From positions 1-52,298 of the IMG/VR virus record IMGVR_UViG_2721755498_000006: 52,298 nt of DNA; one strand, written 5' to 3'. Within the stretch, counting starts at the first letter, position 1. The number at the start of each line of letters is the position of its first letter. The notes beneath the pieces were generated by a model. The model had not been told where the DNA came from, searched no databases, and was given only the letters and a program-made list of their open reading frames with translations. Below, piece after piece: positions 23,737 to 24,475 of this stretch. A program made the position numbers and the translations under genes. Origin of the DNA: a virus. Lineage: Duplodnaviria > Heunggongvirae > Uroviricota > Caudoviricetes.

Positions 23737-24237
23737 TTATTCGCTCCCGTTATCGCAAGGTTCCTTTCGGTGGAAGTAATTCCAACCGTTCCACTTCGCC
23801 AACTGGTTACCGCTACCAACAGGCATACGGTTTGGATAACCGGACTTACATTTAGCGGCTTTTGCTCTGTCCATTGCAGACAGTTTGACGAGTCGCTCTT
23901 TCCCGTATCTGGCAGTGGTTATAAGTTTTGCAGACGCTTCCAGCGCATAATCTGGAGCAATGCGGCAGGCAAGGTTGAAAATGACGGCATTTATAGCGTT
24001 ATTTGATAATCCGTGCTCATCTCCCGGATCTGGAGCGACATCTGCATCAGCAAAAATGTAGCCAACGTTGATACCAGGTGACACATCACCGCCAAGCCAT
24101 TCAGCCATCATCATTTCAAGGTCGTTGACGCCATCTTCCATGGACTGCGGTTCGACATCGGTTAACGTGGCATTTGATGCCACACCGAGCTTACGTAATG
24201 CCGCAAGAACTAAATCACCCTTCGTTGTCAGGTTCAT
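23737..24237 (-). CDS. gp4-like head completion protein
   Basis: [33 protein letters not shown]... like P22 gp4; ORF-track N-terminal extension through the repeat rejected. Confidence 0.85.
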
Positions 24238-24475
24238 CTGCTGCCGCCTTAGGTTTTCGACCAGGCTTTTTACGCTGTTTTTCTTCTGGCTCTGGCTCTG
24301 GCTCTGGCTCTGGCTCTGGCTCTGGCTCTGCAACATCCTTCAGAAGATCATCAGGATGTGCAAACCAGCCAGCATCCAGATATTCCTGAAGCTCTTCGGC
24401 TTTCACGATTTCAAAGTCGTATCCAACGCCTTTCCACTTCTTCATGTCTCCATGACGAAAGATCATGTGTGTCAT
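24215..24475 (-). CDS. small hypothetical protein with (Glu-Pro)n repeat
   Basis: ORF between coat and gp4; [15 protein letters not shown] encoded by the hexanucleotide repeat; start at MTHMIF. Confidence 0.45.
24285..24330. repeat. tandem hexanucleotide repeat TCTGGC x7 plus partial (GCCAGA on minus strand)
   Basis: directly visible; generates ORF-like frames on both strands. Confidence 0.95.

Follow-up and report, generated by a model that had tools for sequence, protein, structure and literature searches.

The DNA analysed here, in the following called the window, comprises positions 1 to 52,298 of the viral record IMGVR_UViG_2721755498_000006 and was identified as part of an Escherichia coli chromosome carrying a P22-like prophage, with the late operon of this prophage on the minus strand. 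Between the gene for the coat protein and the gene for the head-tail adaptor gp4 lies a small open reading frame (ORF) that contains a hexanucleotide array encoding a Glu-Pro (EP) repeat. This array and the small ORF around it are the subject of the present analysis. An initial annotation of the window had described a 46-bp in-frame, EP-coding hexamer in a small ORF between coat and gp4 genes, an intrinsic terminator upstream of it, an overlap with the gp4 start and spurious ORFs with SQ, GS and WL repeats in the other frames. All of these elements could be recovered (Table 1). The repeat is perfect over its whole length, the predicted coordinates of the small ORF are exactly those of an 86-aa ORF, the hairpin behind the coat gene has a 9-bp stem, a UUCG loop and a U-run, the overlap amounts to 23 nt, and the three repeat ORFs are all present in the ORF list.

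Tandem Repeats Finder described the array with a period of 6, 7.7 copies, 100% matches and TCTGGC as the plus-strand unit, and the array was the one outstanding example in the window. Read on the minus strand, it consists of GAGCCA seven times followed by GAA, thus (EP)7E. As a control, the window was shuffled 200 times with its dinucleotides preserved, and the longest self-identity run over lags 4-12 was determined each time. It never exceeded 12 nt, compared to a run of 40 nt at lag 6 in the window itself. The array is a genuine, perfect head-to-tail repeat, far beyond what is expected by chance.

The small ORF itself starts with ATG at 24475 and ends with TGA at 24217-24215, so that the gp4 ATG at 24237 falls inside it. 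The phrog_1175 match covers residues 1-84 of the encoded protein, and orf69 of phage P22 (NP_059631) matches the same profile with an E-value of 4.5e-31. In a direct BLASTP comparison, the two proteins showed 35% identity (E 3e-9) in an alignment that extends through the N-terminal domain and also includes the basic ...GRKPKA tail. In P22 the 69-aa orf69 occupies the same place, between the stem-loop after gene 5 and gene 4, and its stop overlaps gene 4. A survey with one representative genome for each bacterial species detected the gene in this slot in Escherichia, Shigella, Citrobacter, Kluyvera, Yersinia, Buttiauxella and Rahnella (10 loci, 7 genera). The upstream GGAG was kept in 10 of 10 loci from other genomes, a hairpin with T-run precedes the small gene in all surveyed loci except in Kluyvera, and the stop of the small ORF overlaps or abuts the gp4 start in every homologous locus. 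In the case of the N-terminal domain (first 48 codons), the ratio of nonsynonymous to synonymous substitution rates (dN/dS) towards other genera was 0.06-0.31, with synonymous sites being saturated (dS above 1). Based on the PHROG match, the homology and synteny with P22, the conservation across genera and the purifying selection, we consider the ORF at 24215-24475 to be a real gene. Lying downstream of the coat-gene hairpin, it would be transcribed along with the head-completion genes, and because the small ORF ends within the gp4 start, translation of gp4 is probably coupled to it.

Table 1. Features at the coat-gp4 locus and in the surrounding late operon of the window (aa, amino acids)
Feature	Position	Strand	Basis or remark
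Small late gene, 86 aa; orthologue of P22 orf69 (PHROG 1175)	24215..24475	-	phrog_1175, E 7e-37
Conserved N-terminal domain, residues 1-48	24332..24475	-	beta-hairpin, helix, short helix; AlphaFold2
Hexanucleotide array (GAGCCA)7.7, encoding the (EP)7E spacer	24285..24330	-	Tandem Repeats Finder
Basic AT-hook-like tail, residues 66-76	24248..24280	-	conserved across the family and in long WDGH variants
Overlap (23 nt) of small-ORF 3' end and gp4 start, gp4 in the +1 frame	24215..24237	-	read from sequence
GGAG ribosome-binding site	24481..24484	-	6 nt ahead of the small-ORF ATG; read from sequence
Intrinsic-terminator-like hairpin (9-bp stem, UUCG loop) with U-run	24487..24514	-	5 nt past the coat stop
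Spurious 5' extension of the gp4 ORF, M-L-Q-(SQ)7..., ATG at 24336	24238..24336	-	199-aa ORF in ORF list
Spurious antisense ORF, WL repeat	24068..24724	+	ORF list
Second spurious antisense ORF, GS repeat	24174-24389	+	ORF list
gp4 head-tail adaptor gene, 166 aa	23737..24237	-	PF11650 P22_Tail-4, E 1.3e-58; phrog_637 (head-tail adaptor Ad3)
Coat (major capsid) protein gene, gp5 homologue, 431 aa	24520..25815	-	PF11651 P22_CoatProtein, E 8.8e-165
Scaffold	25815-26726	-	late operon
Portal	26740-28908	-	late operon
gp10	22318-23736	-	PF11134
Needle, gp26-type	21617-22318	-	late operon

The number of repeat units differs strongly among relatives. In the loci that were fetched, 1, 2, 5 (plus 1 variant), 7, 8, 12, 13, 15, 18, 19, 20, 24, 29 and 33 GAGCCA units were found, and in all directly counted alleles the ORF was intact, encoding proteins of 74-138 aa. 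A single unit is present in strain 0H25 (74-aa protein). Two units are present in phage CurroJimenez_Bas106, E. coli ECMA0423 and Shigella flexneri SFBU1023, five units plus GAGCAA in E. coli W, seven in strain LR-50 as in the window, eight in phage APC_JM3.2 and 33 in strain 98195 (138-aa protein), with the lengths of 12, 13, 15, 18, 19, 20, 24 and 29 units coming from other E. coli strains. A 501-nt query matched stretches of 471-507 nt in 8 isolated phages, and the locus was detected in 216 of 5426 complete E. coli genomes with match lengths from 465 to 657 nt in 218 records, nearly always in steps of 6 nt. In total, 232 places were obtained from E. coli and 221 loci from IMG/VR. Protein clusters showed the same pattern of length variation as the loci. 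In 78 IMG/VR loci the tract contained 4-15 dipeptide units, variant units included. Here GAGCCA accounted for 537 of 604 units, the variants being GAACCA, GAGCAA (EQ), GAGACA (ET), GATCCA (DP) and GAGTCA (ES). No out-of-frame alleles were found among the translated loci; in a single IMG/VR locus (L042), an early truncation affects the ORF, but at a site outside the repeat. The suggestion of the initial annotation that copy number can vary without inactivating the protein is thus supported in E. coli by intact ORFs with 1 to 33 units. An invariant repeat and an ORF absent from relatives, which it had listed as contrary evidence, were not what we observed, as lengths vary and the ORF occurs in P22-like prophages from at least seven enterobacterial genera.

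More insight into the speed of this variation can be gained from pairs of close relatives. The same prophage is present in E. coli CUVET19-970, from a dog in Thailand, and in IR53017, from a human in China. Their flanks differ by a single substitution over 20,459 nt, but the arrays contain 20 and 18 units, respectively. Likewise, strains 98195 and ECONIH6 differ in their unit number (33 vs 29) with identical 635-nt flanks. Such different unit counts within near-identical flanks indicate that the array changes much faster than point substitutions accumulate. The arrays of other genera are also pure hexamers, in spite of the divergence of these lineages at most of their other synonymous sites. 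GAGCCA is the unit in most lineages, and GAGCCT is used throughout in Yersinia. We read this homogeneity of the arrays as the signature of ongoing slipped-strand expansion and contraction rather than of a codon-by-codon selection for EP.

The protein is built in the order N-terminal domain, acidic spacer, basic motif and a short acidic end which overlaps the first gp4 codons. For residues 1-48, AlphaFold2 gave a predicted local distance difference test (pLDDT) value of about 90, with a beta-hairpin at 2-25 and helices at 26-34 and 41-48. The remainder was modelled as unstructured, with the spacer being disordered or extended (pLDDT about 52). The same fold of the N-terminal domain was obtained in an independent AlphaFold2 model of a longer variant described below. 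In an alignment of 11 sequences including P22 orf69, M1, G9, G16, G36, W37, H40 and P41 are invariant, and W14, Y19, D20, E28 and D42 are invariant as well within a closer set of sequences. The basic motif reads KKPGRKPK in the window and KKPGPKPK, KRGRKPK, KKRGRKPK, KRRGRPPK or KKRGRPTK in relatives, RGRP-type cores thus being found in some of them (KRRGRPPK in protein P0133 and KKRGRPTK in protein P0176).

The spacer between these two conserved parts can be missing or can be extended by a whole domain. In the homologue of Citrobacter NCU1 the spacer is missing altogether (...HPDDLLKRGRKPKAVADESDDEE, 62 aa), P22 orf69 has only PVEADDV at this position, and in E. coli the spacer ranges from 2 to 66 residues. 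In prophages of about 44 complete E. coli genomes, a 203-aa form was found which contains a WDGH domain (PF25311, E 1.5e-39). This form consists of a diverged N-terminal domain and the WDGH domain, followed by the same (EP)n tract, basic tail and gp4 overlap (e.g. locus L025, 416-1027 on the minus strand, and locus L024). Its EP tract varies too, as match lengths range from 827 to 851 nt in steps of 6 nt. A Klebsiella protein (P0193) joins an N-terminal domain of the window type to WDGH and tail. The WDGH domain itself was modelled poorly by AlphaFold2 (pLDDT about 60), and a phmmer search of the long form against the PDB sequences returned matches to the EP tract only. Altogether, the tolerance of an absent spacer, of 1-33 units and of an inserted domain indicates that the N-terminal domain and the tail are constrained and that the distance between them is free. 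Compared to the initial annotation, it is new that the small ORF is a known hypothetical gene, orf69 of P22, that the spacer joins conserved modules, and that spacer-free and domain-insertion relatives exist.

The slot between coat and gp4 genes takes additional cargo, as in a Kluyvera prophage, where the small EP gene is separated from the coat gene by an extra 78-aa ORF without obvious relatives (locus L015, 2768-3004, plus strand). In other phages, WDGH is located between Tad2-like and Sequestin (PF21825) domains. Tad2 is an anti-defence protein against Thoeris (bioRxiv 10.1101/2023.05.01.538930). By guilt by association, this vicinity of WDGH to Tad2-like and Sequestin domains raises the possibility that the slot sometimes carries counter-defence cargo.

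Searches for a function of the small protein gave few leads. Pfam and NCBIfam contained no real family for it, with only sub-threshold compositional matches to procyclin and TonB, and the anti-phage defence models of PADLOC matched neither the short nor the long form. Foldseek against BFVD retrieved only uncharacterised small phage proteins (best E 1e-4). A strand-helix motif of the N-terminal domain resembles a repeat module in the tails of homing endonucleases (phmmer E 5e-7 to 1e-3, 4-6 stretches per protein). One of these matches, P0129, carries GIY-YIG and NUMOD3 domains, and was the sole scanned match that gave family hits. Our best guess, held with low confidence, is that the protein could be a small nucleic-acid-binding accessory protein made alongside gp4 late in infection; that it would bind DNA in particular is a weak guess, for which the RGRP-type cores of some family members and the likeness of the N-terminal motif to the endonuclease modules are weak leads.

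Taken together, we propose that the array is a slippage-driven, frame-preserving repeat, which encodes a length-tolerant spacer of near-neutral variation in a real late gene of the orf69 type, and assign to this explanation a probability of roughly 0.78. Slipped-strand mispairing during replication would add or remove whole 6-nt units, and since only whole units are gained or lost, the reading frame is never lost. The same process would keep each array homogeneous. Loops of 6 nt are poorly recognised by MutS-dependent mismatch repair, and 6-bp units are the commonest variable repeats in the typing schemes of E. coli and Salmonella. At the protein level, (EP)n would act as an acidic, proline-rich spacer which joins the N-terminal domain to the basic AT-hook-like tail. 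As the protein tolerates from 0 to at least 66 spacer residues plus a whole extra domain, the spacer seems to be a passive, length-tolerant linker, and the length variation is most likely near neutral.

Several points weigh against this explanation. The near-neutrality is deduced solely from the tolerance of many lengths, and pure arrays of 20-33 units are unusually long for bacteria. For some of the length calls, the read technology behind the assembly is unknown, and a few match lengths are 1 nt off owing to indels elsewhere. Regarding the tail, the window protein does not have the canonical RGRP core of an AT-hook, and a Pfam scan found no AT-hook match in it. Because part of the tail overlaps the Shine-Dalgarno sequence of gp4, for which AAGG at 24247-24250 within the tail is the likely candidate, part of the tail conservation may act at the nucleotide level. 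In the case of the homing-endonuclease modules, hhalign with the N-terminal domain gave a probability of 96% (E 4e-9) over 19 columns only, a score that is inflated because the modules had been picked from matches to the query. Lastly, our literature search found no expression, proteomic or genetic data on the small gene or on P22 orf69. This search (the gene between coat and gene 4, orf69/P22, HkbT, Sf6 gp6, a GAGCCA variable-number tandem repeat, and WDGH) returned nothing on the gene, the domain or the repeat, and one match to 'ORF69' was discarded as an unrelated ORF of a Shiga toxin (Stx) phage.

The alternative that survives best, although it is unlikely, is that the length variation is adaptive. 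Here the array would work as a tuning knob in a contingency-type locus without on/off switching, adjusting the reach or the charge of the protein, for instance the distance between the targets of N-terminal domain and tail or a polyanionic mimicry, with different hosts or defences favouring different lengths. The alleles do cover a very broad range of lengths, and the pure arrays can become very long, reaching 33 units. The EP array is retained in the same gene across genera with saturated synonymous sites, so something preserves the EP tract there. The association of WDGH, inserted beside the spacer, with Tad2-like and Sequestin domains elsewhere adds the counter-defence hint mentioned above. 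However, a natural homologue does without any spacer and the P22 linker is short, acidic and non-repetitive. Moreover, all lengths from 1 to 15 units are populated with no obvious preferred classes, just as unconstrained slippage would give, and nothing specific was found in support of an adaptive tuning of spacer length. An even bolder version, which we regard as improbable, would make the orf69-family protein a modular late carrier. Its N-terminal domain and AT-hook-like tail would target the protein and optional cargo such as WDGH, maybe for counter-defence, to the packaged DNA or the portal vertex, and (EP)n would be a selected, fast-evolving tuner of reach or charge, thus a contingency locus for protein geometry and not for expression.

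It is very unlikely that the small ORF is a non-functional leader or spacer which merely delivers ribosomes to the gp4 start, with the repeat as tolerated junk DNA. The position of its stop at the gp4 start in all loci would agree with such a role, as would the lack of a known function and of matches in Pfam, NCBIfam and PADLOC, and several records omit the ORF or call it a pseudogene. Nevertheless, a pure ribosome-delivery leader would need neither the purifying selection on the N-terminal domain, with residues invariant from E. coli to P22, nor a confident AlphaFold2 fold, nor the retention of both the N-terminal domain and the tail around an inserted domain of 100 aa.

Still less credible is the assignment of the repeat to gp4, either by a start at the ATG at 24336, which would give an (SQ)n extension, or by a frameshift within the repeat that fuses the N-terminal domain to gp4. 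The SQ frame does continue without a stop into gp4, yielding a 199-aa ORF (23737-24336), the annotators of phage Louie chose this start, and the Rahnella locus has the same open frame. Yet the ATG at 24336 derives from GAT GTT codons of the small ORF and has no properly spaced Shine-Dalgarno sequence, as GAAGG directly abuts it. This ATG and the open frame are missing in the Citrobacter, Kluyvera, Yersinia and Buttiauxella loci. The longest gp4 ORF of Citrobacter, Yersinia and Buttiauxella begins with MNLTTKGD, the position at which P22 gp4 and the Pfam model begin as well. In addition, a TAG stop separates the genes in three loci, and no slippery heptamer is evident. A gp4 start at 24336 was therefore rejected, being neither conserved nor provided with a ribosome-binding site. 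The WL and GS repeat ORFs run antisense to three conserved genes.

Finally, we reject the notion that the copy-number variation is an assembly artefact of a low-complexity tract. Short-read assemblers can collapse or mis-size arrays that exceed the read length, and some match lengths, though few, cannot be divided by 6. This cannot account, however, for the variation of short arrays in four independent data sources, namely RefSeq complete genomes, phage isolates, contigs of IMG/VR and protein databases, given that arrays of 1-15 units (6-90 nt) fit well within one read and that the off-by-one lengths are due to indels outside the array and leave the ORFs intact. In addition, where a strain or its sister strain had been assembled more than once, the short arrays were of equal length (two assemblies of E. 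coli W, H5/H6 and AHM8C212RI/AHM8C160RI).

The favoured explanation can be placed among known systems. P22 orf69 shares with the window gene the slot and the architecture of N-terminal domain, acidic linker, basic ...GRKPKA tail and acidic end, but its linker is short and non-repetitive and contains no microsatellite, in contrast to the (EP)n array of the E. coli-type gene. The long WDGH form (PHROG 3769 type; WP_267651281) likewise shares the slot, a homologous N-terminal domain, (EP)n, the basic tail and the gp4 overlap, and differs by the WDGH domain of about 100 aa between N-terminal domain and spacer, which is lacking in the window protein. In Sf6, gene 6 occupies the same slot (PHROG 3251), with no detectable homology beyond a KRGRK motif. 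The small gene also recalls that of lambda gpFI, a DNA packaging chaperone, as a small late protein encoded between the major capsid gene and the head-completion genes. This protein reportedly has a two-part structure with a long flexible linker in between; no homology between gpFI and the window protein was found.

As to the repeat, enterobacterial hexanucleotide variable-number tandem repeats are likewise short-unit arrays whose copy number differs among close relatives, and they include prophage-borne ones used for typing, such as STTR6, which is intergenic. STTR6 is located on the Gifsy-1 prophage (PMC3901673). The (GAGCCA)n array differs by being situated in a conserved coding gene, where it alters a protein linker, and a description of it as a typing marker was not found in our literature search. 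Phase-variation contingency loci are also hypermutable in-gene tandem repeats driven by slippage. Unlike in these loci, where on/off switching occurs via units that are not multiples of 3 or via promoter spacing, the unit has 6 nt and every examined allele is in frame. The Glu-Pro dipeptide repeat is shared with the (EP)n(KP)m segment of TonB and with trypanosome procyclin, in which EP repeats form extended, rigid, polyproline-II-like acidic rods that serve as spacers. By analogy with these segments, the (EP)n spacer is probably extended as well. The likeness is one of composition without homology (18.4 bits for Trypan_PARP, which has a cut-off of 100, and 13.8-13.9 bits for TonB models with cut-offs of 265-315); moreover, a membrane anchor is lacking in the window protein, whose basic part is a short motif instead of a KP repeat. 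As a whole, the array is a real but ordinary hypervariable repeat, a further example of a slippage-driven in-frame prophage hexanucleotide, and its mechanism is unsurprising.

Concerning the surroundings of the gene, the hairpin after the coat gene, at 24514-24493, was located by a pattern scan and folds as RNA with -18.9 kcal/mol (z -2.3). A GGGGC-TTCG-GCCCC hairpin with T-run is found at the equivalent place in the Citrobacter, Yersinia, Buttiauxella and Rahnella loci, and the P22 and Sf6 records have a stem-loop or terminator annotated there. Rfam, searched with a lenient threshold, gave nothing credible within 23500-25000.

Elsewhere in the window, some further elements were recorded. Several E. 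coli genomes have zorC/zorD sequences with 100% identity to bases 1-3000, and the window begins within a type I Zorya anti-phage system (1-3243 and onward), which places this defence system about 10 kb away from the prophage. The interval between them contains a YagK/YfjJ-domain protein (4465-5547, minus strand), a second tyrosine integrase (7185-8288, plus strand) and a CorA-like transporter (9810-10775, minus strand), and several neighbouring ORFs gave no Pfam match. The genes from 4465 to 10775 look like a separate small integrative island. An acyltransferase-3 and SGNH protein of the O-antigen acetylase type (12965-14752, plus strand) adjoins the tailspike gene (14801-16741, minus strand), which bears a P22 head-binding domain; at this end of the prophage, the two probably form a serotype-conversion module. 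The prophage also bears a tRNA pair, Thr(UGU) and Asn(GUU), at 33064-33219 on the minus strand, and the related prophages L109 and L112 have the same two tRNA genes annotated in the interval from the Q antiterminator to the holin gene. In L109 (strain NRZ105822), a gene with a NUMOD4 domain, of the homing-endonuclease type, is inserted between the gp10 and needle genes of a late operon that is similar in other respects (7653-8198, minus strand). At the other end, the integrase (PF00589; 49680-50930) lies directly beside tRNA-Thr(CGU) at 50855-50930, the likely attachment site. Within an ORF at 38686-39576, which had no Pfam match, two adjoining 11-bp repeat arrays (TGGACAACCGT; 2.6 and 2.9 copies) occupy 39096-39190. 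By analogy with lambdoid phages, these arrays may be replication-origin iterons inside an initiator gene. Two more repeats lie in the early region, one with a 25-bp unit at 41705-41763 (2.3 copies, 73% matches) and one at 44037-44095 made up of degenerate GAAGCA units (9.8 copies, 63% matches).

The repeat tract has practical consequences, as it confuses annotation pipelines. The Prokaryotic Genome Annotation Pipeline (PGAP) calls the intact 130-aa allele of ECONIH6 (locus L002) an incomplete pseudogene, the record of phage Louie (locus L011) extends gp4 through the SQ frame, and in two IME10 records the small ORF is unannotated. The array is at the same time a fast molecular clock in a widespread prophage type, which could separate otherwise identical lysogens, and is thus useful as a marker and as a natural series of linker lengths. 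With alleles that have no spacer, 1-33 units or an inserted domain, this series provides ready-made variants of a conserved gene of the P22 head operon and narrows the hypotheses on the role of orf69.

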